This document shows, piece after piece, positions 1,699-39,703 of a stretch of DNA of 42,056 bases. The notes below the pieces were generated by a model. The model did not search any database and was not told the DNA's origin. It saw nothing but the letters and a program-made list of their open reading frames with translations. The number at the start of each line of letters is the position of its first letter. Within the stretch, counting starts at the first letter, position 1. The position numbers and the translations under genes were made by a program. Source of the DNA: a virus; UHGV virus genome UHGV-0374040; one strand, given 5' to 3'.

Positions 1699-2423
1699 TC
1701 CTTTATTTCATAATCTGGATTATCGTCCAATTCTTTCATCTGTTTTTCACTCATAAGACCGAAGTCGAGTATTTGTTGATCAGATAGTTTGATTGCTCCT
1801 ACATGCCACTTTTTACAAAACTCATCGTAACCAAGTTGATGGATCTCATTGTGTAGTTCAGCTCTCAATATCATGTAGTAGCGCCCACGATGATCAACCT
1901 TTGAACGTTTACCCATCCCTACAGCATTTACATGGTGAATGTGTAGAACGGCATCTTGGCGGCGCGCTTGAGTCGCAAAGCAGCGATTGTGGAGTGCTGA
2001 CAAGAACATCTTTCTATTTATGTCATAGACCAAATACAAATCTTTCCCGTCAAATGGAATGTCATAATGAAAACAGTATTCGACCAACCATGAGATAAAC
2101 TGTGTTGCTAAATCTTTGCTGCAATTCGATAATGAGAATAGTTGTTCATAAGGCAGTCCTCGATCAATACAAAACTTAATCTTTAGATTATCTTCGGTAT
2201 TCTGAATGAACCATTCATTGTCCGTATAACTGTCGATGTCTCTAATCAACGCATGAGCGATTTTCTGCTGTGGACGAGTTACTTTATTCGGGTTGAACGC
2301 TTGAGCCGTCAACAACGTTTTACGCTGTTTGACGAGCAGTTCTAACTCTTCTTTACTGTCATCGATCGGTCGAACTACAAAGTCGCCGTTCGACTGCTTA
2401 CCTACTATGCGCATACTTAACAT
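1671..2423 (-). CDS. Hypothetical early protein with an HNH-like motif (HIHHVN...HNEIH)
   Basis: 250-aa ORF with an RBS (AGAGAAGTGA) 5 nt after the upstream stop. The His/Asn spacing suggests an HNH-type nuclease, possibly DUF968-like, but the family is not confirmed. Confidence 0.45.
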   Translation of the reverse strand: MLSMRIVGKQSNGDFVVRPIDDSKEELELLVKQRKTLLTAQAFNPNKVTRPQQKIAHALIRDIDSYTDNEWFIQNTEDNLKIKFCIDRGLPYEQLFSLSNCSKDLATQFISWLVEYCFHYDIPFDGKDLYLVYDINRKMFLSALHNRCFATQARRQDAVLHIHHVNAVGMGKRSKVDHRGRYYMILRAELHNEIHQLGYDEFCKKWHVGAIKLSDQQILDFGLMSEKQMKELDDNPDYEIKDWQLPERAG

Positions 2424-2428
2424 TCAAA

Positions 2429-3154
2429 TCACTTCTCTTGTTTACTTTTGTCGGCATCTTCTAGCTGTTGTTTTAGCCATCCCACACCGCGTTTGAGCAT
2501 TCCCAAATCGCCCTTAGTCCACTTAGAATCATCAGCAGGTATTTTTGCGGTATCAGCAAGCTGTAAAATCATCCAATCCAAGTCCTTATCGTATTGATCT
2601 GCGATTTTTTGCATTGTTTTAATAAATAGTTTCTTACTACGATCGCTGGCCTCTTCTAACATGCTCACATCCTCGGGCATATCTTCTCCTGTGAAAATGT
2701 ATAGGCCTAATCCAAACATAGCTAGATTCTTGACCAAACACCGCATAATAGTTTTGTTAATGTCGAACATTGTTGCTGCTTCGCAAGTGCGATCAATATA
2801 GTTTCCTGTCCACTTACTATCTTTGTATTCTTTGACTTTGTAGGTATATGGTTCATCCTTCATTGCTTTATTTGAACTGTCCATTACTGGTAACCACATT
2901 TCTCTTGTTACCCCATTGATCGTAATTTCAGTGAAGACCATATAACCTGTTTTTGAATCAAAAATATACGGTTGTTTGGTTACTTCGTCCTTGTAGACTG
3001 AGTAATCAATTGAGTTGACACGTTTACTCACTTCGGCCCACGCCCATGCCCAAGAAAGGTAGGTGAGCTTATTCCGTTTCTCCGCTACATCCTTTACATC
3101 TATTTGGTAAAGAAGATTAAAAAGTTGATTATCTTCCCTAGTAAACTCACTCAC
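2429..3154 (-). CDS. Putative single-strand annealing protein (Rad52/Sak/DUF1071-like)
   Basis: 241 aa, located in the recombination/replication module upstream of SSB. Contains the LSWAWAW region typical of Rad52-like phage annealing proteins. The family call is from memory and needs HMM confirmation. Confidence 0.5.
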   Translation of the reverse strand: MSEFTREDNQLFNLLYQIDVKDVAEKRNKLTYLSWAWAWAEVSKRVNSIDYSVYKDEVTKQPYIFDSKTGYMVFTEITINGVTREMWLPVMDSSNKAMKDEPYTYKVKEYKDSKWTGNYIDRTCEAATMFDINKTIMRCLVKNLAMFGLGLYIFTGEDMPEDVSMLEEASDRSKKLFIKTMQKIADQYDKDLDWMILQLADTAKIPADDSKWTKGDLGMLKRGVGWLKQQLEDADKSKQEK

Positions 3155-3497
3155 TGAATATCTCCTCCATTTCTTTCATCGTCTCCTTCATTTCCTTTTT
3201 GAAGGTTTTACCATAACTGTATTTTGAAAGTTTTGCCGCTACTAGTTCTACTTCAAATTCGTCAAGTAACTCCTGGGCACGCTCGAATAGTACAAAAAAT
3301 ACCTTTGTACCTGTTTCTGTCTCAATCAACAAATGATAAACTGTGTCAGTATCATAAATTGGCGCTCCTGTGTCATCTTGATAAAATTCAACTGATTCAC
3401 CAAAAGCATTTTTGCGAGTCTCTGGCGCAATTTCAAGCAGTTCAGGAACTGCGGTTATTTTTTTGTCTAGCGCTACTTTCTCTTTTTCTGATAGCAT
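3147..3497 (-). CDS. Hypothetical acidic early protein
   Basis: 116-aa ORF whose end overlaps the start of the next gene by 8 nt, suggesting operon coupling. Confidence 0.45.
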   Translation of the reverse strand: MLSEKEKVALDKKITAVPELLEIAPETRKNAFGESVEFYQDDTGAPIYDTDTVYHLLIETETGTKVFFVLFERAQELLDEFEVELVAAKLSKYSYGKTFKKEMKETMKEMEEIFSE

Positions 3498-3735: not shown

Positions 3736-4239
3736 ATGGAATTCTTAGGATTATCCATTTTCCAATGGATGTCGATAATTAGCTTCCTTCTTAGTACTTC
3801 GTTGACGATAGTAAAAATCAGAGGAATGCGTCCACAATTAGAAGTAGCTCTGAATGCTTCTTACTTTGCAGCCGATATGCTTTATACAAAGATAATCGTC
3901 TCTAATTTTTCAACTGAGCCAGCAATGTTGGTGAATCTAGAACTTTTATCAGATAAGCTAGATCATAAATGGGCTGCGACTCCATATAGAAAGCTAATTG
4001 CTAAAGGAGGATCGACAGGTGACAACCGAATTTATTCAGAATCAGTTCCTTTAAATATCCCTCCGAAAAGTGCAATGTCTTTTTATTTAGCTTTCGAAGT
4101 AGGCAATAAAAACTTTAATGGTGTATTGAGTAATCAAACTAAAATGATTTTCAGTCTAAACCGAACACAGATAAGTAAAATGGTTGATATCAAAAATACA
4201 AACTCGCCAATAGAGAAGTTAGTGAAAGAATTAAACTAA
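3736..4239 (+). CDS. Opposite-strand moron: N-terminally membrane-anchored protein
   Basis: 167 aa with an N-terminal TM helix. It has its own extended -10 promoter (TTTGATATAAT at 3699-3710), an RBS (GGATGGTGA), and a downstream hairpin plus T-run. It is transcribed against the early operon. Confidence 0.55.
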   Translation: MEFLGLSIFQWMSIISFLLSTSLTIVKIRGMRPQLEVALNASYFAADMLYTKIIVSNFSTEPAMLVNLELLSDKLDHKWAATPYRKLIAKGGSTGDNRIYSESVPLNIPPKSAMSFYLAFEVGNKNFNGVLSNQTKMIFSLNRTQISKMVDIKNTNSPIEKLVKELN

Positions 4240-6649: not shown

Positions 6650-7006
6650 ATGCTTTTTGAACGGGTAAAAGAGCTCTCTAATAAAAGAGGGATATCAATT
6701 TCTGAGTTGGAAGATCGGATAGGATTTGGAAAGAACTCCATTTACAAATGGAAAAAGCAGAGTCCGAAAATAGAAACTCTGCAAAAGGTAGCTGATTATT
6801 TCCAAGTTTCTGCTGATTATCTTCTTGGTCGAACTGATAACCCTTCAACAAATCCAAAGGAAATCGATGTCAAAGATGATACTGTCATCATGACCTATGG
6901 CGGAAAACCTGTTTCAGATAAAGATCGTGAAATCATTCTTGCAGCAACACGAGCTCTTGTTGAACAAAGGGCACGTGAAGAGGAAGAAAGAAAAAAATCT
7001 AAGTAG
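6650..7006 (+). CDS. CI-like XRE-family repressor
   Basis: 118 aa with an N-terminal HTH (ISISELEDRIGFGKNSIYKWKKQ) and C-terminal dimerization-type region. Positioned upstream of ImmA and int. Confidence 0.75.
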   Translation: MLFERVKELSNKRGISISELEDRIGFGKNSIYKWKKQSPKIETLQKVADYFQVSADYLLGRTDNPSTNPKEIDVKDDTVIMTYGGKPVSDKDREIILAATRALVEQRAREEEERKKSK

Positions 7007-7014
7007 GTGTCTGT

Positions 7015-7425
7015 ATGTTAATTTTTTTGAGAAACTTTGCCAAAAAAATAGGTGTGGATGTACTCTATTTAAATGATATTGATGAGGATGGGTGCTATCT
7101 GCCAGAACACAATGTAATATACATCCATCCTGGATTGTCTGAATACGAAGAAATCCAAGTTTTGTCACATGAATTATCCCATGCTTCTAAGCATAAAAAT
7201 TTCTACAACGAGTACAAAGACTCTTATATTTCACATTGTAAAGCGGAAAACGAGGCAGATATAGAAGCAGTAAAAACTTCTCTATCGCATTATTTAAACA
7301 ATGCACAAGTGACTGATAGATCACAATTAAACTGGATTTATTTTATGGATTGCTATAATATCGATTATTCATTAGAGCCAGTCGTAAAGAAATGGATGCC
7401 TATCATTTATCAGCAAGTGTATTGA
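7015..7425 (+). CDS. immA: ImmA/IrrE-family metallopeptidase (anti-repressor protease)
   Basis: 136 aa with a HExxH motif (SHELSH), immediately downstream of the repressor as in ImmR/ImmA pairs. Confidence 0.75.
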   Translation: MLIFLRNFAKKIGVDVLYLNDIDEDGCYLPEHNVIYIHPGLSEYEEIQVLSHELSHASKHKNFYNEYKDSYISHCKAENEADIEAVKTSLSHYLNNAQVTDRSQLNWIYFMDCYNIDYSLEPVVKKWMPIIYQQVY

Positions 7426-7481
7426 TTATTATTTTTTTTAGAAAAAACAGAACGTACGTTCGTAAAACAGGAGGCTATTCC

Positions 7482-7700
7482 ATGGCTATTGATAAGCAAC
7501 CACTGACGGCAAAGGAACTTATTGAAATTCTTCAGAAAGTTCCACCTGATACTGATCTTTACGTTAATGGATACATTTCATGGGAGCACGGCTTCGTGAA
7601 TGTTGATTTCCCAATTACTTCAGTACAAAAATTAAAAACTTATGCTGAAAGCAATCAAAATTATATTGAGCTGTTCGGAAAATCTAAGACGGAGGACTAA
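7482..7700 (+). CDS. Hypothetical protein upstream of int
   Basis: Start chosen at MAIDKQPL with RBS ACAGGAGG. The longer ORF start would overlap immA. Confidence 0.45.
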   Translation: MAIDKQPLTAKELIEILQKVPPDTDLYVNGYISWEHGFVNVDFPITSVQKLKTYAESNQNYIELFGKSKTED

Positions 7701-7703
7701 TTT

Positions 7704-8933
7704 ATGGCTACATTCAGAAAACGCGGTAAAAAATGGGAGTATCGTATTCGTTACGTTGATCCCATTACAGGTAAAAAAACTGAGCATAGCAAAGGTGGAT
7801 TTGACACGAAGCCAGAAGCGGAGTATGCAGCTGCGGAAGCGTATATAGATGTTAAAGACGGAACCGTGGCTAAAAATCCCAATATTCTGTTCAGAGACTA
7901 CGCAGACAGTTGGTTTGACACTTATAAGGGTTCTGTCAAAGAAACGTCTCTACGATCACGTGAGACCTATTTAAACACACTCAAGGATACGTTTAAACAA
8001 TTACGTTTGAACAAACTCACTCACAACCTTTATCAAAAGAAACTGAATGAGCTATCTAAACGATATAAACGGAATTCACTTATAGCCGTGAACCAGGTCG
8101 CGCAGATGATTGCAAAGCAAGCGGTAAAAGATGGATACTTCAAATCGAACCCAATTACTGACATAAAAATACCGCATTACGAAGATTCAAATGAAAAAAT
8201 CGAATTTTGGGAATTAGTCGATATCCAGAAATTTAGAGATTATTGTTTATCTGAAATAAATAAAAAGAGAAAAAAAGGTAGTTACTACATCACATTAGAA
8301 AAACAACGCGATCTCGCTTTGTTTTATTTGCTGATTTATGGTGGCTTTAGAATAGGCGAAGCTTGTGCATTGCACATGAATGATTATTACCCACTGACCA
8401 AAGAAATAAATATATCAAAAACATTGGGTTCACCAGCTTCAAATCAATTAAAAAATAGCTATAAGATTTTTCCGCCAAAAACAAAAAGTGCTTATAGGAC
8501 TATTCCTCTACCAGAGATTGCCTATAAGCAACTAGAAAATTGGATAAACCTACGAAATGAATATGCTGAACTCTTTCCATTGGTTTTCCAAGAATCACAA
8601 TTTTTATTTTGTAAAAAGGACGGTTCACCCATGACTCCTAGAGACATGAGAACTAAATTTAACGTGATAATAAACAAAGCAAATCTAACAAAAATTACAT
8701 TACATGGCTTGCGCCACACATACACTGCTCTGCAAATCCAAGCGGGGACTGATCCAAAATCATTGCAGATGTTACTAGGGCATTCTAATGTAAAAACCAC
8801 TTTAGACATCTATGCTCACATTACCGGAGACAAACGTAGAGAAACTATTTCGCAATTTGATAAAATGCTTAAGCAACTCGACGGCGGGGCAAAAGCGGGG
8901 CAAGATCCAAAACCCGAAATATCGAACCCTTGA
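7704..8933 (+). CDS. int: Tyrosine integrase
   Basis: 409 aa. The C-terminal catalytic region (LRHTYTALQ...LLGHSNVKTTLDIYAHI) carries the R..HxxR..Y signature. Confidence 0.9.
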   Translation: MATFRKRGKKWEYRIRYVDPITGKKTEHSKGGFDTKPEAEYAAAEAYIDVKDGTVAKNPNILFRDYADSWFDTYKGSVKETSLRSRETYLNTLKDTFKQLRLNKLTHNLYQKKLNELSKRYKRNSLIAVNQVAQMIAKQAVKDGYFKSNPITDIKIPHYEDSNEKIEFWELVDIQKFRDYCLSEINKKRKKGSYYITLEKQRDLALFYLLIYGGFRIGEACALHMNDYYPLTKEINISKTLGSPASNQLKNSYKIFPPKTKSAYRTIPLPEIAYKQLENWINLRNEYAELFPLVFQESQFLFCKKDGSPMTPRDMRTKFNVIINKANLTKITLHGLRHTYTALQIQAGTDPKSLQMLLGHSNVKTTLDIYAHITGDKRRETISQFDKMLKQLDGGAKAGQDPKPEISNP

Positions 8934-9117
8934 AAAAGCTTTATATCAAGCGATTTTTAAGGTAGTAATCAACCTTTGTAGCAATCAAATCGATCTAAAT
9001 AAACCCGTTTTATTACTATATAGCAGAGTATTAATCCTCCTGTTATCGTGATTAAGGCGGGTTTTTCCTTATATCCATATATACTAAGTTTAAAAGGGCG
9101 GGGCAAAAGTGGGGCAA
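8883..9117. repeat. Candidate attP / integrase-binding region: a 21-bp direct repeat GGCGGGGCAAAAG(C/T)GGGGCAA at 8883-8903 and 9097-9117, plus a GGCGGG half-copy at 9054
   Basis: The first copy overlaps the int 3' end and the second lies 214 bp downstream in the int-proximal noncoding region. Confidence 0.35.
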
Positions 9118-9145
9118 CAATCATCATTCTTAAAAGTTTGTTCGC

Positions 9146-9175
9146 TTTACAAACCAGAACAAACGTTCGTATAAT
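9146..9175 (+). promoter_or_regulatory. Near-consensus sigma-A promoter for the plus-strand accessory cassette
   Basis: TTTACA-18nt-TATAAT, followed by RBS GGTGAGGTGAAGG and an ATG at 9194. Confidence 0.5.
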
Positions 9176-9193
9176 ATCGGTGAGGTGAAGGTT

Positions 9194-9592
9194 ATGATTT
9201 ATGATGATGAGTCAGCAGAAAAGCTTTTTTTAGAGGCCAAAAGCGTTTATGAGGATAGGGGCATGTTGAAATGGTTGACAGGATTCTTTTTATCCGATCA
9301 CACTGCAGCAATGCAAAAAGATGTTGCTGAACGATCACGAGTCAATGAAAAAAAGCCACAGATGTACCCTCACGAAATACAACACGTTCTAGAGCATGCT
9401 CGCTTAAAAAGACGCCCTGTCGCAATTCAGCTAGAACAGCTAGATATGGAAGGTAAATATTTAGATGATGTGGTAGGTATGATAAAAGGCTATGACGAAT
9501 TAGGAATCTACATTGATGATCAAAAAGTAGATTACGATGAAATACGACATGTAGAGTTGTACGACTGGCACAAATGGAGTGAGCTGAAATGA
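9194..9592 (+). CDS. Hypothetical accessory (moron) protein
   Basis: About 132 aa. First gene of a four-gene plus-strand cassette between attP and the lysis module. Confidence 0.5.
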   Translation: MIYDDESAEKLFLEAKSVYEDRGMLKWLTGFFLSDHTAAMQKDVAERSRVNEKKPQMYPHEIQHVLEHARLKRRPVAIQLEQLDMEGKYLDDVVGMIKGYDELGIYIDDQKVDYDEIRHVELYDWHKWSELK

Positions 9593-9801
9593 ACCCTATT
9601 TTGCTCTACGAACAAGGCTATATACCTTTTTCTACATTACAAGACTTATTGTGGGATTTTGGACCAAACAGCATTTTTGAAGTCGGTGAAAAGTGTTTTG
9701 AGTTTTACTGCAATAAAGCTAACGGTTTTCACAATTTCGATTTTTATATTCTTAGATATGGGAGTGGTTTAAATGATGAGCGCGAGTGGTATTGTGAGTA
9801 G
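9589..9801 (+). CDS. Hypothetical small protein
   Basis: 70 aa, 4-nt overlap coupling with the upstream gene. Confidence 0.4.
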   Translation: MNPILLYEQGYIPFSTLQDLLWDFGPNSIFEVGEKCFEFYCNKANGFHNFDFYILRYGSGLNDEREWYCE

Positions 9802-10027
9802 TGTAAAGATTTTGAAGTTTTCTGAGCATCCTTTGGTCTATTTTAAGCTAAATGATACCAGTTGTTTGATAGCTAGTCATTCACTAAATTTTCTTGCGGA
9901 TGTTGAAAATGGAATGCGCATTGCTATTTCTGGTGAATACAATAACCGTGGTCAGTTTATCGTTCGAAAGTACGGAGTGATTGGCAAAACAAAAATAATG
10001 ATCGAATTCGAAAGATTATCAGTTTAA
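9773..10027 (+). CDS. Hypothetical small protein
   Basis: 84 aa, overlaps the upstream gene by 29 nt. Confidence 0.35.
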   Translation: MMSASGIVSSVKILKFSEHPLVYFKLNDTSCLIASHSLNFLADVENGMRIAISGEYNNRGQFIVRKYGVIGKTKIMIEFERLSV

Positions 10028-10083
10028 TTTTATATTCTGAATGTTAAAATAATATTGAAATAATTATTTTAACGAAAGAAGGT

Positions 10084-10590
10084 TTGGTTTTGAAAAATCT
10101 AGTAAAATACAGTGCAATCATTTTATGCAGTAGTCTTTTAGGCTGCGTTGCTCTAAATACTGATTATAATATCGGTTCTCAACAACCTAATATAGTTTAT
10201 GCTGCAAAGAAAAAAACATCCCTCAATTCAAATAAATCGATTGAAAAGTACCTAAAAAAGCAAAACAAATCATTGAAGATTTTAGAAGTGAATGGAACTT
10301 ATGCGGAAAAGGGAAATTACACAACGCAGATAACACTTGATGCGAAAGACAATGGAATGAACAATGCAAAAAATCAAGTTATCATGGCTGTCAAAGCATT
10401 AAATAAAAAGAGCGTTAAGAATTTCTCTAACATTGGCATTAGTGTTAAAGCCGATATGACTGACGGAGATAAAGGATACGCAATCAAATCAGACTGGGAC
10501 CCAGAGTTCATAAATTCCAACGATGCAAAAACAGTTCGATTAAAAAATGTCGATCAACGTGCAAAATCGTGGTGGCAATTAGAAAACTAA
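10084..10590 (+). CDS. Secreted lipoprotein (moron)
   Basis: 168 aa with a signal peptide and lipobox (SSLLGC), TTG start with RBS AAAGAAGG, K/N-rich mature part. Followed by a hairpin terminator at ~10607-10648. Confidence 0.55.
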   Translation: MVLKNLVKYSAIILCSSLLGCVALNTDYNIGSQQPNIVYAAKKKTSLNSNKSIEKYLKKQNKSLKILEVNGTYAEKGNYTTQITLDAKDNGMNNAKNQVIMAVKALNKKSVKNFSNIGISVKADMTDGDKGYAIKSDWDPEFINSNDAKTVRLKNVDQRAKSWWQLEN

Positions 10591-10825
10591 TTAAAACCAA
10601 AAAACACCCTCCACAACCAACTAAGGCTGTAGAGGGTGTTTGCTGCATATTAAACCCCACTCCTGTGTCTGGTAGGAATGGGGTAAGAGTGAGATGGGTG
10701 ACATCTCGTGAACTCAGTATAACACAAAAAGTAGCACCCGAATTAACGAGTGCTACTAATCATGAAAAAAATGTTAGGTTGTTAGTAATTAGAGTATACA
10801 ATGTAACGGTTACATATGCAATAGA

Positions 10826-10858
10826 AAAAAGACCTTAGCTCTCGCTAGGGTCTTTAAA
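10826..10858. terminator. Strong bidirectional rho-independent terminator
   Basis: AGACCTTAGC-TCTC-GCTAGGGTCT hairpin (9/10 bp) flanked by an A-run and a T-run, directly after the stop of the minus-strand two-gene cassette. Confidence 0.5.
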
Positions 10859-10860
10859 CT

Positions 10861-11748
10861 TTATGAAATTATCCGTTCTAATACCTCTATCGGTTGAGCT
10901 ACATTTCCTATCCGTTGCAACTCTTGAGTGAATTTTATTTCACCTAGCTCTGAAAAAATATCGTATGATGTAATTCGCTCATCCTTTTGTTTAAGATAAT
11001 CCAACATTTGAATAAGTGAACCGTCTTTATTGCTTTCACTTCTTGATTTATATAGAAGTGTGATTTTATTCGACTCTGTATAGTTCTCAGTAATAAAATT
11101 TATTCTTTCTAACCATTCATATGCAGCTTTTAGCTTCTCTGGAGTAGAGTGAATAAGTTCTATCTTTTCCTCATTAGCGTAACCAAAATCTATTGTATAT
11201 GACTTATTTAATGTCTTGATAGGCTTTATTAATATATTAGATTTAATAATTTTTGAAAGGGATGGGGTACTATCTATTATTTTAGCTGCTTTTTTCTTTA
11301 CAACCATAGAGTTGCTTCCGATCTCTTCATCCAGAAATTTTTTTCCAACATATTCTTCAAGTAAATTTTGATAGAGGATATCTATACTACTAGCTTTTGC
11401 AAAGCGAAGATCAGAGAAAATGAATCCACTAGGCAAATTTTGACTACTAACTTGATTTATAAAGGTTTCTGAAGAAGCATCTAAACCAAACCTAAGCTCA
11501 TTTTCATCAATTGAAGATATGACGTAATTTAATATATCGTGACCAGTTTTATAAGTTTTCTCATCAATTTTCGAATGCCATACAGATTTCAATTTGCTAT
11601 TTTTTGGCTTTAATATACGATATCGAATTTCACCTGTTTCGGGTACATTGAGAATCACTCCTACATTCACAATTTCACCTTTTACGATATCAGATAAATA
11701 CCTAATTATTGAATACCAGACGACTTTTCTTGATCTAAATTCTCCCAA
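10861..11748 (-). CDS. DUF3037-like protein (GExxNxG motif) with a ~170-aa C-terminal extension
   Basis: 295 aa. The N-terminus (WYSIIRYLSDIVKGEIVNVGVILNV) matches my recollection of the DUF3037 signature. It is the second gene of a 43-nt-overlapping operon with the kinase-like gene, and very AT-rich. Confidence 0.55.
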   Translation of the reverse strand: MGEFRSRKVVWYSIIRYLSDIVKGEIVNVGVILNVPETGEIRYRILKPKNSKLKSVWHSKIDEKTYKTGHDILNYVISSIDENELRFGLDASSETFINQVSSQNLPSGFIFSDLRFAKASSIDILYQNLLEEYVGKKFLDEEIGSNSMVVKKKAAKIIDSTPSLSKIIKSNILIKPIKTLNKSYTIDFGYANEEKIELIHSTPEKLKAAYEWLERINFITENYTESNKITLLYKSRSESNKDGSLIQMLDYLKQKDERITSYDIFSELGEIKFTQELQRIGNVAQPIEVLERIIS

Positions 11749-12680
11749 ACTAGTTCACCTCCTGTATGATTAGAAAATAGATTTCCTCGAACCATTTCAA
11801 TTATTATATATCTGACTAGAGAACGTTGTCTACACAAAAACTCTACATAGGTATTCCTTTGTTGGTTTCCCATTACCGTCCATTCATCAGGTATTTCAGA
11901 CATTATTTGAATTAATTGTTCGTCAGTTAAATTTTCAATTCTGTTAATAATTTCGGAAAAAGGATTACTTTGAGTTAAATCTATATTATTTTGCATACCT
12001 TGAAATATAGAGCCTAATGTAAAACCACCTCCATGTTTACGTAGTTCTCCTAAAAACCAGTCGATATATTCAGGATGCTGATTGACTCTCAAAAAATCCA
12101 CTTTTCCTATTTCGAAGTATGGATTCCCAAATGCATGTCCATGATCTATCGCAAATACTTTGCGTTGGCCTTTTTCACACCCAATTAGCAAATTTCCATT
12201 ATTGCAAAACCTATCAGCATTTTGGATAAATAAGTCAAAAGCCATTATATTTGCGTAATCCTGAGAATTACTAACATCCTTGAAGTAGCCAGACCAAGCT
12301 CTTTTTATCCGTGGTAAACCTTTCTCGATAGCTAAACTATAATTATCGGAAATATTATCCTCAACGTCTGGTATTTCTTCGGTTGCGAAGTAAAGGCCCG
12401 GCGTGAATTTTCCGCTGAATCTGAGCTCAGCATTAGCTTCTATAAATTCTTTCTCCAGCTCAATTATGGCAAAATTAGGTATGGGAATAAGCAGTTTTTT
12501 GGCTAGCAAAGAACATAAAAGTTCCTGAAAAAAGACTGCATTTTGTTTTTTTCCATTGACTATTTCAGTTTTCAAATAATACTTTTTCCCATTTTCAGCC
12601 GTTATCTTAACTGGTTTTGACTGTCCAAGTTTTGGACTTGGACTATTCAAATAAGTTTCAGCATAGAATCTATCAACCAT
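11706..12680 (-). CDS. Protein-kinase-fold (HipA/PI3-4K-like) protein
   Basis: 324 aa. It has a catalytic-loop-like FIQNADRFCNNGNLLI, a DFG-like FAIDHGHAFG, and an N-terminal Lys-containing strand (KKYYLK). RBS GGAGG lies 6 nt upstream. Confidence 0.55.
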   Translation of the reverse strand: MVDRFYAETYLNSPSPKLGQSKPVKITAENGKKYYLKTEIVNGKKQNAVFFQELLCSLLAKKLLIPIPNFAIIELEKEFIEANAELRFSGKFTPGLYFATEEIPDVEDNISDNYSLAIEKGLPRIKRAWSGYFKDVSNSQDYANIMAFDLFIQNADRFCNNGNLLIGCEKGQRKVFAIDHGHAFGNPYFEIGKVDFLRVNQHPEYIDWFLGELRKHGGGFTLGSIFQGMQNNIDLTQSNPFSEIINRIENLTDEQLIQIMSEIPDEWTVMGNQQRNTYVEFLCRQRSLVRYIIIEMVRGNLFSNHTGGELVWENLDQEKSSGIQ

Positions 12681-12826
12681 CGATGTTCCTCCATCTCAAT
12701 TATATATCTGCTACATTAATTAAAACAAAACAGGCTTCAGAAAACAAGCGTTTTCCAAAGCCTCAGCAGATATAATCCAGACAGATTACCTATAAAGTGT
12801 ATCAAACTTACGTTCGATTTTCAATA

Positions 12827-12904
12827 ACCATGTACCCTGTAGGACTCGAACCCGCATCTTCCGATATGAACCGGAGTATTCTACCAATTGAACTAGGAAT
12901 ACTC
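12827..12904 (-). other. tRNA-like element / tRNA 3'-fragment (non-canonical)
   Basis: A perfect T-loop GGTTCGAGTCC and a D-loop-like AGTTCAATTGGTAGA are present. No canonical acceptor stem or anticodon stem could be folded by hand. Instead the 5' 8-mer GAGTATTC pairs with GAATACTC. Confidence 0.35.
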
Positions 12905-12932
12905 TTAAATAAGGATTATTATTTTTAAAACG

Positions 12933-13012
12933 TGTTATAATACAGAATAGAACGTCAGATCTTCCCCACAGTCCACTTCCCCAAGTAACTGTATCTGACG
13001 TTCCCTTTTTTT
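12933..13012 (+). ncRNA. Candidate small RNA or terminator: extended -10 promoter, then an 11-bp perfect inverted repeat with a 32-nt loop, then a T-run
   Basis: Extended -10 TGTTATAAT at 12933-12941. Stem GAACGTCAGAT (12950-12960) pairs with ATCTGACGTTC (12993-13003). The loop contains two CTTCCCCA motifs. T7 run at 13006-13012. Confidence 0.3.
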
Positions 13013-13099
13013 ATGGGCGAGTGACTTCCCAATAGAGTAGATGTTACCTAGAAACCGATTTCTTTGCAAATGATACACTCATAAAAAAGTGATACACTA

Positions 13100-13134
13100 C
13101 ACAAAGAAACAACCAGCCCGCACACGACTGGTTG
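13100..13134 (-). terminator. Rho-independent terminator downstream of the endolysin
   Basis: On the minus strand: CAACCAG-11nt-CTGGTTG hairpin followed by TTTCTTTGT. A second small hairpin AAGGTTT-AACGA-AAACCTT lies at 13168-13187. Confidence 0.4.
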
Positions 13135-13229
13135 CCGATCAAGATGAAACTTAGTTATGAAAGAAGTAAGGTTTAACGAAAACCTTATCTATATTTATAC
13201 CTCTGTGCTTGGATTTTTGCAAGCGGATT

Positions 13230-14243
13230 CTAATACTTAAACCCTTTAATGTGTGCCGGATTAATTCCTACATCCTTCGCCTTGCCCATCTCTTGAATTT
13301 CTTTCAATACAATCGGCGCATCATGATCGTTGAATCCTTCACCTTTGATGCGAACATCCCAAGTTCCGTAAGAATTCGCTTCGGCATACGTTTGTTTATC
13401 CAACAATACATCTTTCAGGAAGTTACGCATATGATCTTCCATCTTTTTACTTTGTGCGTCGTTGAGATTCCTAGCCTCAATTTTAATGATAGGTTTATCT
13501 CCATCAACAATCGCAATGTTCTGTTGCATGTATCCAGGATAGTATGTCTTAAGTTCCTGCTTCAAACGATTTACAGCGTTCTCGTACTTCCACTTAGAAT
13601 CACACGAGATTACTAAAGTATAAACCTTGTTCGGCTGCAACACTCGTTTTACTTGATCGCGCAATAAAGTCCAAGCATATTTTGTTTGAATACGCTGAAC
13701 CATTTTAACCGCTTGATCTTTGGACACATTATCAATCGCAATACCGCTCTTGTTTCCTGATGGTTGTGGTGTTGGTGTAGGGTTAGGTTTTGGCGTATTT
13801 CCGCCCTGATTCTTCAACCGATAAGCATAAAAATAAGGACATCCGGCCATTACCCATCGTTGATCATGATTAGCAATAATGGTAGTCATTTTCCAACCAG
13901 TACATTCAATCCAATTTTGATTATCTAGCGCTACACCAGTATGACCCCCGGCACCAGCTGAATAACCCTTCTTACCCCAAATAATTACGTCTCCACGTTG
14001 CATTGGGAAATCTGTATTTTCAGCTATTTTTTCATACCCTAGTTTTATGAGATAATCATGCAATGTTTCAGTACTAGGAATATATCCATAGTTAAATCCG
14101 CCTGATTCTCGTAAAATACGATAGACAGAGCCTGAACAATCGCACGTGCCATCTGTGTAATAACGAGAACCATACATGCTGTAGTAGCAATTATTTACAA
14201 ATTTTTGAACGACGGCTAATCCTTTTTCGATATTAATAGCCAT
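13230..14243 (-). CDS. Endolysin: N-terminal NlpC/P60-CHAP-type peptidase plus C-terminal cell-wall-binding region
   Basis: 337 aa. Cys-His catalytic pair context (TCDCSGSV...GGHTGV). Located immediately after the holin. The C-terminal 160 aa is K-rich and non-catalytic. Confidence 0.8.
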   Translation of the reverse strand: MAINIEKGLAVVQKFVNNCYYSMYGSRYYTDGTCDCSGSVYRILRESGGFNYGYIPSTETLHDYLIKLGYEKIAENTDFPMQRGDVIIWGKKGYSAGAGGHTGVALDNQNWIECTGWKMTTIIANHDQRWVMAGCPYFYAYRLKNQGGNTPKPNPTPTPQPSGNKSGIAIDNVSKDQAVKMVQRIQTKYAWTLLRDQVKRVLQPNKVYTLVISCDSKWKYENAVNRLKQELKTYYPGYMQQNIAIVDGDKPIIKIEARNLNDAQSKKMEDHMRNFLKDVLLDKQTYAEANSYGTWDVRIKGEGFNDHDAPIVLKEIQEMGKAKDVGINPAHIKGFKY

Positions 14244-14361: not shown

Positions 14362-14745
14362 TTATTTTTCCTCCTTTTCAGACGTATCTTTCAGTTTAGA
14401 AAATCTATCTTTTATCCAATCAGGAAAAGGCACGCCTAGTTGCCCTAAGTTTTCAACAATTGAAATACCATAAACTGCAATGTAGAAGAATACAAAGCTT
14501 GTCGCAATTGCTTCAAATCCCATTATTTTTAAATATGGATAAGCAACAATTACTAAACAAATAACTAATAGATGCTTAACAATTCCTAGTAATCCTTTCG
14601 TACTATTCCCTTCTTTGACAAAAAAACCTTTGCATAATCCAGTTACGATATCCCCAAAAACAAGCCATACAAAAACCTGTAAATATCCATTACTCAACAA
14701 ATTCTTAAATTCATGTAGTAAAACTCCGTTGTCTAAAATCACCAA
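14362..14745 (-). CDS. Holin
   Basis: 127 aa with three predicted TM segments and a charged C-terminal tail (SEKEEK), directly upstream of the endolysin. Confidence 0.75.
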   Translation of the reverse strand: MVILDNGVLLHEFKNLLSNGYLQVFVWLVFGDIVTGLCKGFFVKEGNSTKGLLGIVKHLLVICLVIVAYPYLKIMGFEAIATSFVFFYIAVYGISIVENLGQLGVPFPDWIKDRFSKLKDTSEKEEK

Positions 14746-34213: not shown

Positions 34214-34255
34214 TAAAGCTCGCTAGTCCTACAAACAATGATTTGTTTTTTCCTA

Positions 34256-34328
34256 TTGACGTGACCGGGCTCGAACCGGCGACCTCCTGATTAAAAGTCA
34301 GTCGCTCTACCAACTAAGCTACACGTCA
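34256..34328 (-). tRNA. tRNA-Lys (anticodon UUU)
   Basis: Hand-folded cloverleaf: acceptor TGACGTG/CACGTCA, U8, D-arm GCTT-AGTTGGTA-GAGC, anticodon loop CTTTTAA, T-arm GCCGG-TTCGAGC-CCGGT, discriminator A. There is one A:G mismatch at 27:43. CCA is not encoded. Confidence 0.8.
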
Positions 34329-34888
34329 ACTCGGAGGAGCTACCTCCTAGCATGCTGTTTGAGATTGACTTCTTCTGACGGTATCTGCTGAAGAAGCTCA
34401 GCACCTAATGGCTCGGAATACCGTTTCAATCTCTAAGTCACTGGCAAGGATTTGCACCTTGCATATCTAACATTTTCAAAATTAACTCGCCTCTCGTAAA
34501 CAAGATACTTTTTAGGGCAATGGAGTAGTTAGATTTATAAGTCATAAGCGTCTACCTTTTCCGCCACAGTGACATAAAGACGGCACGTGAACTTTAAAGG
34601 AAACGAAGTCTTTCAACTCCATTCTTTTTTTATTTTGTGCCGTCATGAGCTTCTAACTGCACCTAAAAGCTCGTTATATACATTGTGCAGATGTTGCCTT
34701 CTCTGTTTCCGCAGAGTGGCAGTGTAGTCAAAAAGCGAATAACCCACCAAGCTAGACGTATATATGTTAAGAGGTATAAGGAGAACTTCATGCCAATAAA
34801 GTTAGTTTGAGTCGTCTGCTTGATGGATTATCTACTCTATCATTTTAGACCCTATTGACATGGCACAACTACACGTTTTTGTGCCAAA
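34329..34888 (-). promoter_or_regulatory. 560-bp structured noncoding region upstream of the packaging operon (candidate cos/pac and late-promoter region)
   Basis: Hairpins GGAGG-AGCTA-CCTCC (34332-34350) and CTTCTTC-14nt-GAAGAAG (34367-34394). An 8-bp inverted repeat GACGGCAC/GTGCCGTC spans ~65 nt (34579-34648). Confidence 0.3.
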
Positions 34889-38384: not shown

Positions 38385-38579
38385 CTACACTTTCTCGACT
38401 GGCATCAATTGATTTGAAAGCCAATACTCCGTTTCGCCGGATTCATTTTCACATTCACAAATTATTACTGTTGCAGAATTCGGACTAAATATTTCTTTGA
38501 TAAAATAATTGGCAACCGCAGCCCCTGTTACCTCTACTGTATTGCCTGATAAAGTTTTATATTTTGTTCCTATTGTCAT
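38385..38579 (-). CDS. Hypothetical small protein
   Basis: 64-aa ORF. Confidence 0.35.
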   Translation of the reverse strand: MTIGTKYKTLSGNTVEVTGAAVANYFIKEIFSPNSATVIICECENESGETEYWLSNQLMPVEKV

Positions 38580-38698
38580 TCTTAAAACCTCCCTGATAGG
38601 CTGAGTTAGCCTTCTTATTAATTACAATCGTCTTGTAAGTACTATATTTGATATAATCTCCCTATCAGTGAGTGGTCAACTGAAATACTAACAAGGAG

Positions 38699-39184
38699 GT
38701 GAGTAATTTGATTAATGTGTTAATTACTTCTTTAATATCAGTTGTTGCTATTTTCATTTCTTATTACTTAGGTAGAAAAACTAAAATTAAGGACAGGACT
38801 GAATCAAAACTTGAAGAACGTTATTACAAATTTTATATCCCTTTACTAACTAAAGGATTAAAAACTTCTTTTTACGACTATCAGTATGTTATGGATTTTT
38901 TTGGGCTAGACTTTGTAGTTTTTTTACTTGATTCAATTCCATACATGGGAAATAAGTCAGTAAAGTATATAAAAGATTTGTATTCTTACGGCCAAGATTT
39001 TTATATGTTTGGATGTGATTATTCAGGTCAAATGAAAGTTGCTCCAAAGGAAATTCAAGAACTTCACGATAAAAATATGGAAACAGGAAATAAAATTTTT
39101 AACTCGTTCATGGAGATTTGTAAAGAAGAAGCAGCTGAAATAGCAGAAGAACTGAAATTAGAGCCGATATCAAAATCACTTTAA
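38699..39184 (+). CDS. Second opposite-strand moron: N-terminally membrane-anchored protein
   Basis: About 158 aa with an N-terminal TM helix; the probable start is the TTG at 38708, with RBS AAGGAGG. It has its own extended -10 promoter ATTTGATATAAT (38646-38657), flanked by the inverted repeat CCCTGATAGG/CCTATCAGG. Confidence 0.5.
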   Translation: MSNLINVLITSLISVVAIFISYYLGRKTKIKDRTESKLEERYYKFYIPLLTKGLKTSFYDYQYVMDFFGLDFVVFLLDSIPYMGNKSVKYIKDLYSYGQDFYMFGCDYSGQMKVAPKEIQELHDKNMETGNKIFNSFMEICKEEAAEIAEELKLEPISKSL

Positions 39185-39316
39185 TCACACGTTTGAAGCG
39201 ATTCGAATCAATTACTAAAATAATTAATAACGCTATTATCGAACTGAACACCGGTGTAAATTTATTGATATCTTCTATTAAATTATTCAAAAAAACACTT
39301 CCTTGACTTTATGCAA

Positions 39317-39469
39317 CTACTTGTCTTTAGACAGGTAGTTTTTTATATGCTCAGTTTCTTCTTCAAAAAATCTATCCATCCACTTATCAATCATCTTCAT
39401 TTGATATTTCATCATTAAGAACGAAACGATTCCTGATGTAATAATCGATGTAATAATTAGTTTAATCAT
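39317..39469 (-). CDS. Small membrane protein (below the ORF-track cutoff)
   Basis: About 50 aa (MIKLIITSIITSGIVSFLMM...) with a strong RBS AAAGGAGC 6 nt upstream. Confidence 0.4.
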   Translation of the reverse strand: MIKLIITSIITSGIVSFLMMKYQMKMIDKWMDRFFEEETEHIKNYLSKDK

Positions 39470-39496
39470 AAGAGCTCCTTTCTTTGATAGGCGTGG

Positions 39497-39703
39497 TTAC
39501 AGGAACTTCTTACCATGTCTCAACACATAGTAGTAATCGGGCTTTCCGGTTATCCCAGTAACTTTTACTTTTTTCTTTCCACATTTCCGGCATGCATATG
39601 CTCTTGCCTGCGTGTCTCCGCCTATTGCAGCCATCAGTTTATAGTCATGCTTGCATATGCTAAAAAGTCTGATCATTCGCCGTCCTCCTGTTCTTTTGGC
39701 CAC
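39497..39703 (-). CDS. Zinc-ribbon small protein
   Basis: 68 aa, GTG start, with paired Cys (C..H...CRKCG). Confidence 0.4.
   Translation of the reverse strand: MAKRTGGRRMIRLFSICKHDYKLMAAIGGDTQARAYACRKCGKKKVKVTGITGKPDYYYVLRHGKKFL

Follow-up and report, generated by a model that had tools for sequence, protein, structure and literature searches.

A divergent HipA-like kinase/DUF3037 cassette, a predicted anti-phage module, behind the lysin gene of a temperate Enterococcus phage

The stretch of DNA analysed here, referred to as the window, comprises 42,056 nucleotides of UHGV virus genome UHGV-0374040 and belongs to a temperate Enterococcus avium siphovirus. A cassette of two minus-strand genes, encoding a kinase and a DUF3037 protein, lies between the endolysin and attP/integrase. 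The lysin, an Amidase_5 protein, is encoded at 13230-14243 and the holin at 14362-14745, and the tyrosine integrase gene is found at 7704-8933. An earlier note, made from the letters alone, had placed the gene pair in a moron slot between attP/int and the lysin, and these positions agree with that.

The predicted toxin gene (11706-12680, minus strand) starts with ATG and encodes a 324-aa HipA_2-family atypical Ser/Thr kinase. The protein matches Pfam HipA_2 with an E-value of 1.8e-19 (70.4 bits, cut-off 27), and PI3_PI4_kinase slightly under the cut-off (E 1.2e-5). No match to HipA_C, HipA_N or Couple_hipA was obtained at E <= 1, leaving HipA_2 as the only HipA-type Pfam family. Further matches are to PADLOC PDC-M66A (E 6.9e-16) and phrog_3162 (E 6e-42). 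Profile searches of PDB sequences gave nothing meaningful for either cassette protein, and HipA was not found with the kinase profile at E <= 1. The AF2 model of the kinase has a pLDDT of 85 and a pTM of 0.87, and its Foldseek matches are PI4K-II alpha, CtkA, HipA (4pu4, 3tpv, 3dnv) and HipT (8ezr).

Residues K37, E53, D156 (in QNADRF), N163 and D179 (in AIDHGH) are invariant among 16 homologues. We predict that K37 binds ATP, that E53 is the helix-C residue, that D156 of the NADR motif is catalytic and that D179 of the IDH motif binds Mg, with N163 in the same set. A G19-x-S21-x-P23 motif in the N-terminal lobe is also invariant; it lies in a loop of low confidence (pLDDT approximately 57), and its counterpart in the alignment with DS-6A, the kinase of an E. 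coli system discussed below, is GSTQP. The C-terminal tail holds conserved clade-specific residues, F302, N304, G308, L310 and W312. The kinase is of the HipA_2 fold, and its catalytic set is intact. The kinase-like motifs and the HipA/PI3-4-kinase type of fold recognised in the earlier note are thus confirmed by the HipA_2 match, the Foldseek matches and the invariant residues.

The predicted antitoxin or partner gene (10861-11748, minus strand) starts with TTG and encodes a 295-aa protein. Pfam DUF3037 matches residues 12-59 with an E-value of 1.5e-7 (32.1 bits, cut-off 22.6), in line with the DUF3037-like N-terminus expected from the letters. In the model the protein has two domains, an N-terminal DUF3037 domain at approximately residues 8-142 and the anticipated extra C-terminal domain at approximately residues 149-295. 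Among 67 distant relatives only E25, N28 and G30 are invariant or near-invariant columns; together they make up the GExxNxG motif. The protein matches PADLOC PDC-M66B over its full length (E 8.1e-12, profile positions 6-272 of 281), and so do 62 of the 67 distant relatives, the best with an E-value of 1.8e-74. The family is uncommon, accounting for 183 of 1.84 billion representative clusters.

The modelled core of the C-terminal domain is alpha-beta-beta-beta-alpha-beta, a restriction-endonuclease-like fold of the PD-(D/E)xK type. We rejected an active PD-(D/E)xK nuclease, since the catalytic D...(D/E)xK motif is not conserved. Of the motif only D187 is kept, in 55 of the 67 relatives; most of these have N at position 197, Q, K or H occupies position 200, and the ExK spacing is absent. 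DUF1829 was also considered for this domain and rejected. None of the 67 relatives reaches Pfam DUF1829, and the label on the E. coli partner DS-6B is a weak HHpred assignment with a probability of 0.78 only.

The two genes overlap by 43 nt (11706-11748, minus strand), as the earlier note had proposed. The overlap depends on the TTG start of the DUF3037 gene. This start is credible because AGGAGGTG (11763-11756) lies 7 nt upstream of it, the match to the DUF3037 profile starts from residue 12 of the product, and an overlap of 34-49 nt is kept in homologous loci. By this layout, the kinase and DUF3037 genes form a translationally coupled operon.

From reading the sequence, we place a putative promoter and leader for the operon at 12681-12731 on the minus strand. 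It has a weak putative -35 element, TTGTTT (12728-12723), an 18 nt spacer and a perfect -10 element, TATAAT (12704-12699), followed by a GGAGG Shine-Dalgarno sequence (12692-12688) and the kinase ATG at 12680. The -35 element matches the consensus at three of six positions only, which explains why a consensus scan did not list this promoter. The stretch is largely conserved in the homologous region of E. faecalis. Directly upstream, between a tRNA-like element and the cassette, the terminator scan found a hairpin at 12732-12763 on the minus strand (dG -18.8, z -5.8), the stem of which is kept in E. faecalis via compensatory changes. This hairpin would isolate the cassette from upstream (late/lysis) transcription. 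At the other end, an intrinsic terminator is located at 10826-10858 on the minus strand (dG -15.2 kcal/mol, z -3.7; all 200 shuffles were less stable) and is followed by U6. It had been described as strong and bidirectional; this holds on the cassette strand, whereas on the plus strand the stem (-17.6) is followed by an interrupted U-tract, so that the word bidirectional is half supported. Flanked by terminators and preceded by its own promoter-like element, the cassette seems to be transcribed independently.

The composition of the cassette is foreign to the phage. Its GC content is 0.325 as compared to 0.383 for the window, and only 1% of stretches of the same size are as low. GC3 is 0.23-0.26 in the cassette and 0.33-0.39 in the phage genes, in keeping with the earlier observation that the pair is richer in AT than the phage genes on either side.

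The tRNA-like element upstream of the cassette (12831-12902, minus strand, 72 nt) was identified with ARAGORN, Rfam and by homology to a copy in E. faecalis. It had been taken for a fossil 3'-fragment of a tRNA. Our results show instead a decayed relic of a full-length tRNA(CAT), because the Rfam tRNA model is matched over positions 1-71 of 71. The score is 30.5 bits against a cut-off of 29, a margin of 1.5 bits. ARAGORN reports 'tRNA-???' with an abnormal anticodon loop, and a 7-nt anticodon loop and stable stems, as looked for in a tRNA gene, are absent. The fold is no better than that of shuffles (z +0.24), as compared to a z of -4.05 for the E. faecalis copy. An intact tRNA-Met(CAT), homologous to the relic, occupies the same position in E. 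faecalis loci. We regard the element as a probable pseudogene, marking where the cassette module is bounded upstream. A functional tie between the tRNA(CAT) and the kinase was considered, as HipA-type kinases target aminoacyl-tRNA synthetases, and was rejected on the distribution of the tRNA. Only the E. avium (decayed) and E. faecalis (intact) lineages have it upstream of the kinase; a third Enterococcus lineage, Vagococcus and those other lineages for which this region was available all lack it there.

The cassette is part of a mobile block of 4 kb (9139-13170), delimited by blastn against two related loci, L003 and L004. Within it lie the post-lysin terminator (13108-13136), the tRNA relic, the cassette and, on the plus strand, four small convergent ORFs (9185-10590), one of which encodes a 168-aa lipoprotein. 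Informative family matches were obtained neither for these four ORFs nor for two further ORFs on the opposite strand. The window is 99.0% identical to L003/L004 over 4034 nt, and the lysins and tail genes there differ. Homology to L003, which is an integrated prophage, stops at 9139, and this suggests that attP is located at about 8934-9139. Since a 4-kb block that is 99% identical is found in unrelated phage backbones, we conclude that it moves by phage-phage recombination. The earlier note had read the cassette as captured from a host chromosome by imprecise excision; what the data show is instead the near-identical block shared across backbones.

In each of the 26 loci screened the DUF3037 gene directly follows the kinase gene, and this order is kept in two of three remote lineages, the contig being cut in the third. 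The two genes are therefore conserved neighbours. The cassette follows the lysin directly in at least five Enterococcus prophage backbones, and the endolysin directly in at least four different backbones of the E. avium type. An E. faecalis myovirus-type prophage has the cassette in this post-lysin slot too, as do the third Enterococcus lineage and a distant contig of phage size that carries a serine recombinase. In Vagococcus, the homologue comes last in a small island with an integrase. A search for related loci with an alignment of close relatives retrieved four genomes only, and no relatives of the cassette were found among 50,697 deposited phage genomes, either by megablast with the DNA or by tblastn with both proteins.

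The primary reference for HipAD, cited in PMC13092281, is reportedly Brenes & Laub 2025 (Cell Host Microbe 33:1004), which is said to deal with defence systems from E. coli prophages. As described in PMC13092281, DS-6 of E. coli was validated as an anti-phage defence system and renamed HipAD, and defence is lost in a D139A mutant of DS-6A. We used DS-6A (WP_000389051.1) and DS-6B (WP_000210934.1) from this study, the DefensePredictor paper (PMC13092281), as references. In DS-6 the kinase gene is found at 2415-3164 and the DUF3037 gene at 1591-2418, on the minus strand. In hhalign, the profile of our kinase aligns to DS-6A with 97.2% probability (E 4.3e-11), placing D156 on D139, and the profile of the DUF3037 protein aligns to DS-6B over both domains with 84.5% probability (E 6.9e-6). 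When relatives of the window's DUF3037 protein are turned into a family HMM, it matches DS-6B from end to end (residues 3-271) with 133.6 bits. The kinase is 23% identical to its DS-6 counterpart over 168 aa, and by BLASTP the partner is alignable over its N-terminal 49 aa only. On this profile evidence both proteins are distantly but significantly homologous to E. coli DS-6/HipAD.

The likeness extends to the layout of the cassette. As in DS-6/HipAD, a kinase gene is followed by an overlapping DUF3037 gene, the kinase is of the HipA_2 type with an NADR catalytic loop (D156 corresponding to D139) and an IDH Mg-binding motif, and the DUF3037 partner has two domains. Both pairs also match the PDC-M66A/B models at similar E-values, DS-6A and DS-6B with 6e-15 and 3.8e-16, respectively; the two window proteins do so as peripheral members (E 1e-12 to 1e-16). 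These models come from PADLOC-DB v2.0.0, in which PDC-M66 is a computational phage-defence candidate defined by genomic association, not by mechanism, and M66 is absent from the main text of the Payne et al. preprint. The cassette differs from DS-6 in several respects. The kinase has 324 aa as compared to 249 aa for DS-6A and carries an extra conserved C-terminal tail; the genes overlap by 43 nt rather than 4 nt; and the host is a Gram-positive (Enterococcus) instead of E. coli. The clade-specific tail and the 75 extra residues suggest that regulation of the kinase may differ from that of DS-6A.

A second tested relative is the HipA-like/DUF3037 pair in the Retron-Sda1 operon, which PADLOC calls PDC-M66. 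According to PMC12548924, this pair is a standalone defence system that acts independently of the retron; deletion of HipA abolished defence and deletion of DUF3037 was toxic. Both copies are two-gene units of a kinase and a DUF3037 protein. The Retron-Sda1 pair is part of a retron operon in an environmental isolate, whereas the prophage copy described here stands alone, and neither an RT nor an ncRNA is found in its vicinity. The C-terminus of the Retron-Sda1 DUF3037 protein resembles a retron type III DNA-binding protein, a feature of that copy. The earlier note had suspected an undescribed system, and this does not hold, as the pairing corresponds to PDC-M66 and was validated as DS-6/HipAD and in the Retron-Sda1 operon. 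Judged from sequence, the cassette is a divergent Enterococcus prophage copy of an already described and tested system.

With the classical HipBA and HipBST systems the cassette shares the kinase superfold, the logic of a catalytic Asp and a Mg-binding Asp, and a candidate protein antitoxin in the operon. Unlike in these systems, the partner is a DUF3037 protein encoded downstream and not an upstream HTH protein HipB or HipS. Upstream of the kinase gene there are a terminator and the tRNA relic, and no HTH (HipB) gene. The best structural superpositions are those on CtkA of Helicobacter pylori (TM approximately 0.52) and on type II PI4-kinases (PI4K-II alpha, E 5e-7). These reflect a likeness of fold only, with 12-18% identity and no functional or genomic relationship.

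Based on these comparisons, we consider it likely that the cassette is a HipA-like kinase/DUF3037 anti-phage module, in which the kinase would be the toxin, the DUF3037 protein the antitoxin, and the lysogen would be protected by abortive infection. A defence function encoded by the prophage, as proposed in the earlier note, thus appears to be the best reading, given the tested homologues DS-6 and the Retron-Sda1 pair. By analogy with these, the kinase would be a growth-arresting toxin that the DUF3037 protein binds and neutralises; the endonuclease-like C-terminal domain of the latter may also contact DNA. A superinfecting phage would release or activate the kinase, which would then phosphorylate an essential target. 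E. coli HipA targets GltX and HipT targets TrpS, and by analogy the target may be an aminoacyl-tRNA synthetase. Arrest of the cell would abort the infection and so protect the lysogen population and the resident prophage. It should be noted that abortive infection is a hypothesis only, even for DS-6, in PMC13092281.

The cassette may instead be a plain toxin-antitoxin system for addiction or stabilisation, retaining the prophage or the 4-kb block by post-segregational killing without any anti-phage role. The toxin/antitoxin logic supported in the Retron-Sda1 homologue would fit this, as would the selfish behaviour of a block that is 99% identical between phage backbones and the terminal position of the Vagococcus copy in a small integrase island. 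However, kinase-dependent phage defence was measured in two independent homologous systems, and the post-lysin position in several prophages is the usual site for accessory (moron) genes. We therefore regard addiction as the sole role as unlikely, while noting that one module may serve both addiction and defence.

Kinases of the HipA family arrest growth and bring about persistence (antibiotic tolerance), and the kinase of the cassette might serve lysogenic conversion or regulation, tuning host physiology, prophage induction or persistence with the DUF3037 protein as regulator or substrate adaptor. A seemingly independent transcription unit would suit expression in the lysogen, and the C-terminal domain of the partner has a fold like that of DNA enzymes. 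Against this, we found nothing to link the cassette to the lysis-lysogeny genes (6650-8933), from which attP separates it, and the tested homologues consist of a toxin and its neutraliser and confer defence; such a role is in our opinion quite improbable. We give hardly any credence to a reversal of roles, in which the DUF3037 protein would be an effector nuclease acting through its PD-(D/E)xK-like domain and regulated by the kinase.

Within the preferred reading of a defence module, the DUF3037 partner could be more than a passive antitoxin. We speculate, with considerable doubt, that its C-terminal domain is an infection sensor for phage DNA, a replication intermediate or a phage protein, that the FSNHxGGxLxW tail of the kinase adds a step of regulation that E. 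coli HipAD lacks, and that the target of the kinase is perhaps specific to Gram-positives. PMC13092281 and PMC12548924 report no trigger, target or sensing mechanism for the kinase/DUF3037 family, so the Enterococcus clade could show a variant mechanism.

The cassette is not a system of a new kind. It extends the recently validated HipAD/DS-6/PDC-M66 family from E. coli and an environmental isolate to temperate Enterococcus phages; the genus is of clinical importance and a target of phage therapy efforts. The 4-kb block, always inserted right behind the lysin in unrelated prophages, would be an example of the exchange of defence cargo among phages of Gram-positive bacteria, and the cassette offers a compact, divergent homologue for comparing how DUF3037 proteins may restrain and release HipA-like kinases.

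The cassette consists of two minus-strand genes, both found as open reading frames where the earlier note had placed them. In brief, the kinase gene (11706..12680, ATG start) encodes a protein of 324 aa, and the DUF3037 gene (10861..11748, TTG start) one of 295 aa. The two genes overlap by 43 nt only if the TTG start is used, and that start has good support: AGGAGGTG precedes it by 7 nt, the Pfam DUF3037 profile match starts at residue 12 of the protein, and overlaps of 34-49 nt between the two genes recur at homologous loci. The genes are translationally coupled. As had been claimed, the cassette is AT-rich, with a GC content of 0.325 versus 0.383 for the window, a value equally low in just 1% of same-size windows, and a GC3 of 0.23-0.26 versus 0.33-0.39 for the phage genes. 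An intrinsic terminator at 10826-10858(-) ends the cassette (dG -15.2, z -3.7, followed by U6). This hairpin was thought to be bidirectional; it is sound on the cassette strand, whereas the opposite strand combines a good stem with an interrupted U-tract. A second, conserved terminator is located upstream of the kinase gene at 12732-12763(-) (dG -18.8, z -5.8). From the sequence we also read a predicted promoter-like element on the minus strand, with a perfect -10 TATAAT (12704-12699) and a weak -35, followed by a GGAGG Shine-Dalgarno ahead of the kinase gene. A consensus promoter scan did not list this element upstream of the kinase gene. With terminators on both sides and a promoter-like element of its own, the cassette looks like an insulated transcription unit.

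The 324-aa protein matches Pfam HipA_2 (E 1.8e-19), with a PI3_PI4_kinase match slightly under threshold. Its AlphaFold model is confident (pLDDT 85, pTM 0.87) and has type II PI4-kinases, H. pylori CtkA, HipA, HipT, CotH and Fam20 as structural neighbours. Judged from the model, these are the atypical kinase superfamily that the earlier note had in mind, and its proposal of a HipA/PI3-4-kinase-type protein is borne out by these neighbours and the HipA_2 match. Residues K37, E53, D156, N163 and D179 are invariant in 16 homologues; the kinase fold and catalytic residues are intact. The protein is not HipA sensu stricto: neither HipA_C nor HipA_N was matched in the Pfam search and a sequence-level search of the PDB did not match HipA. 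Kinases of the Enterococcus clade are extended at the C-terminus by about 75 aa. The extension ends in a conserved FSNHxGGxLxW motif (residues 300-312, about 11745-11783, minus strand), which is modelled with low confidence and in which F302, N304, G308, L310 and W312 are conserved within the clade. As a tail specific to this clade, it could serve in regulation or in binding the partner.

The 295-aa protein has a Pfam DUF3037 match at its N-terminus and folds as two domains in the structure model, in agreement with the suggestion of a DUF3037 N-terminus with an extra C-terminal domain, the latter having a predicted endonuclease-like fold. An exhaustive profile search with its family gave 183 representative clusters. 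DUF3037 is present in all 67 sampled members and PADLOC model PDC-M66B matches 62 of them, while DUF1829 matched none of the 67.

PADLOC assigns the window kinase to PDC-M66A (E 6.9e-16) and the DUF3037 protein, over its full length, to PDC-M66B (E 8.1e-12), the two models of the candidate defence system PDC-M66. DUF3037 is strongly tied to HipA-like kinases, an association recognised as PDC-M66 (PLoS Biol 2025, PMC12548924). In the Retron-Sda1 operon the kinase-DUF3037 pair alone protects against phage Bas51; deletion of the kinase abolishes defence, and deletion of the DUF3037 gene is toxic (PMC12548924). In DS-6, an E. coli defence system, DS-6A is the HipA-like kinase and DS-6B the DUF3037 protein (Science 2026, PMC13092281). 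Mutation of a predicted catalytic residue of DS-6A abolished defence, contacts between DS-6A and DS-6B and between DS-6B and DNA were predicted with AlphaFold3, and a toxin-antitoxin/abortive-infection model was proposed (PMC13092281). According to the same paper, Brenes & Laub 2025 arrived at the system independently and renamed it HipAD; their report concerns prophage-encoded defence systems of E. coli. The earlier proposal of an undescribed system thus does not hold: both PDC-M66 models are matched, and the pair has been published as DS-6/HipAD (PMC13092281) and in Retron-Sda1 (PMC12548924).

We compared the window proteins with DS-6A and DS-6B as given in the supplement of PMC13092281. The window kinase profile matches DS-6A with 97.2% probability (E 4.3e-11) at a pairwise identity of about 23%, and the DUF3037 profile matches DS-6B across both domains with 84.5% probability (E 6.9e-6). 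An HMM of the 67 family members matches DS-6B end to end (133.6 bits), and against the PADLOC models DS-6A (E 6e-15) and DS-6B (E 3.8e-16) score on a par with the window proteins. The mutated D139 of DS-6A is the Asp of NADR, the same motif and aligned column as D156 in the window. Gene order is also the same, with the kinase first and an overlapping DUF3037 gene second. DS-6A, at 249 aa, lacks the C-terminal extension of the Enterococcus-clade kinases. Profile alignments, the D139/D156 column, PADLOC scores and gene order together indicate that the window pair is a divergent member of the DS-6/HipAD/PDC-M66 family.

A 6-kb comparison with locus L001, an assembly contig of 42,086 bp, gave 100% identity to the window, and DUF3037 proteins 100% identical to that of the window are annotated in Enterococcus avium. 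Besides structural genes, an ImmA-like protease and an HTH repressor, the window encodes a tyrosine integrase (7704-8933), an Amidase_5 endolysin (13230-14243) and a holin (14362-14745). In an integrated prophage lysin and integrase are located at opposite ends; here they are contiguous, so the contig is an excised or circular form with an intact attP. Homology to the integrated copy L003 stops at 9139, which places attP at about 8934-9139 and makes the stretch from 9139 to the lysin a lysin-attP accessory slot. The cassette lies in this slot, as expected of the proposed moron. An ORF at 38699-39184(+) (161 aa) lies on the strand opposite to its neighbours in the most AT-rich pocket of the window (38501-39500, GC 0.30, with a local GC-skew reversal); it gave no Pfam match and an insignificant PADLOC match, and could be another moron. 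A further ORF at 3736-4239(+) (167 aa), on the opposite strand inside the early-gene block, had no Pfam match and an insignificant PADLOC match (NsnC, E 0.006).

Upstream of the kinase gene, at 12831-12902(-), is a tRNA(CAT)-like element (Rfam tRNA, 30.5 bits, cut-off 29). It had been described as a tRNA 3'-fragment, but the Rfam match covers positions 1-71 of 71. ARAGORN finds its anticodon loop abnormal, and its fold is no more stable than that of shuffled sequence (z +0.24). By contrast, its E. faecalis homologue, located at precisely this site (L009 9769-9842), is an intact tRNA with anticodon CAT (z -4.05). The window element is a decayed, full-length relic. ARAGORN types the tRNA(CAT) as Met; from its sequence it may be Ile2 instead. 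In E. faecalis the tRNA is followed by a terminator, whose stem is kept via compensatory changes. A role for the tRNA as functional partner of the kinase was considered and dropped, as it is absent upstream of the kinase in the other lineages for which that region is available; we treat it as a landmark of the module boundary. The relic fits an origin of the cassette beside a tRNA gene, which falls short of demonstrating the suggested capture by imprecise excision from a host chromosome. Among the packaging-side genes, the phage carries a genuine tRNA-Lys(TTT) (34255-34329(-), Rfam 68 bits).

Conservation of the pair as neighbours had been named as a check. With the kinase and DUF3037 HMMs run over the retrieved loci, 26 of 26 had a kinase ORF immediately upstream of the one for DUF3037, and two remote members have the same order. 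For a third, P0060, the contigs end just upstream of the DUF3037 gene, and it was left out of the count. At least four prophage backbones, which differ in their lysins, tail genes and integrases, have the identical cassette directly behind the endolysin. In the same slot, a 66%-identical pair is found in an E. faecalis myovirus-type prophage adjoining host V-ATPase genes, and a 64-65%-identical one in a third lineage of Enterococcus. Flanked by the lysin and a serine recombinase, a pair with about 25% identity occurs on a distant contig of phage size. In Vagococcus fluvialis (CP081461.1; L007 1974-10918) the pair forms the end of a small, roughly 9-kb island that starts with an integrase, encodes HTH and IstB/DnaA-like replication genes, lacks structural genes and adjoins the ribosomal protein L27 gene; this layout resembles a phage satellite. 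As in Retron-Sda1, where a reverse transcriptase adjoins the pair, a reverse transcriptase gene (RVT_1, L024 672-1877) is carried by a distant phage-sized contig with the pair, just upstream of the lysis genes, and may be part of a diversity-generating retroelement or another defence element.

Unrelated backbones share a 4-kb block (9139-13170) at 99% identity; it is present in L003 and L004, whose lysins, tails and integrases are unrelated. Besides the kinase-DUF3037 pair, the block includes the terminator behind the lysin, the tRNA relic and four small ORFs in convergent orientation. This sharing argues that the module spreads by phage-phage recombination and points to a recent exchange of accessory cargo. 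The cassette is flanked by terminators, sits in an accessory slot and belongs to a mobile block. The four small ORFs (9185-10590(+); 135, 70, 84 and 168 aa) point towards the cassette and move together with it; none was matched by PADLOC. A match to phrog_16307 was obtained for the 135-aa product. The 168-aa product, whose sole match is phrog_8263 (unknown function), bears a lipoprotein-type signal (…LLGC); we speculate that it could be a superinfection-exclusion factor. In one E. faecalis genome the lysin is separated from the tRNA(CAT)-cassette unit by about 2 kb of extra sequence, including a DUF3800 gene (L011 7838-9633), so the post-lysin slot takes further cargo.

The description and domain guesses of the earlier note were accurate, and prophage-encoded defence is the best reading of the cassette by analogy with tested homologues. 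Following these homologues, we suggest that the kinase would be a toxin and the DUF3037 protein its neutralising partner, that defence would require kinase activity, and that the outcome would probably be abortive infection. Purely by analogy with HipA and HipT, the kinase substrate might be an aminoacyl-tRNA synthetase. It seems unlikely that the Enterococcus clade uses a variant mechanism of sensing or regulation. Judged by its sequence relationships, the cassette is a new Gram-positive prophage member of a known, recently validated family.
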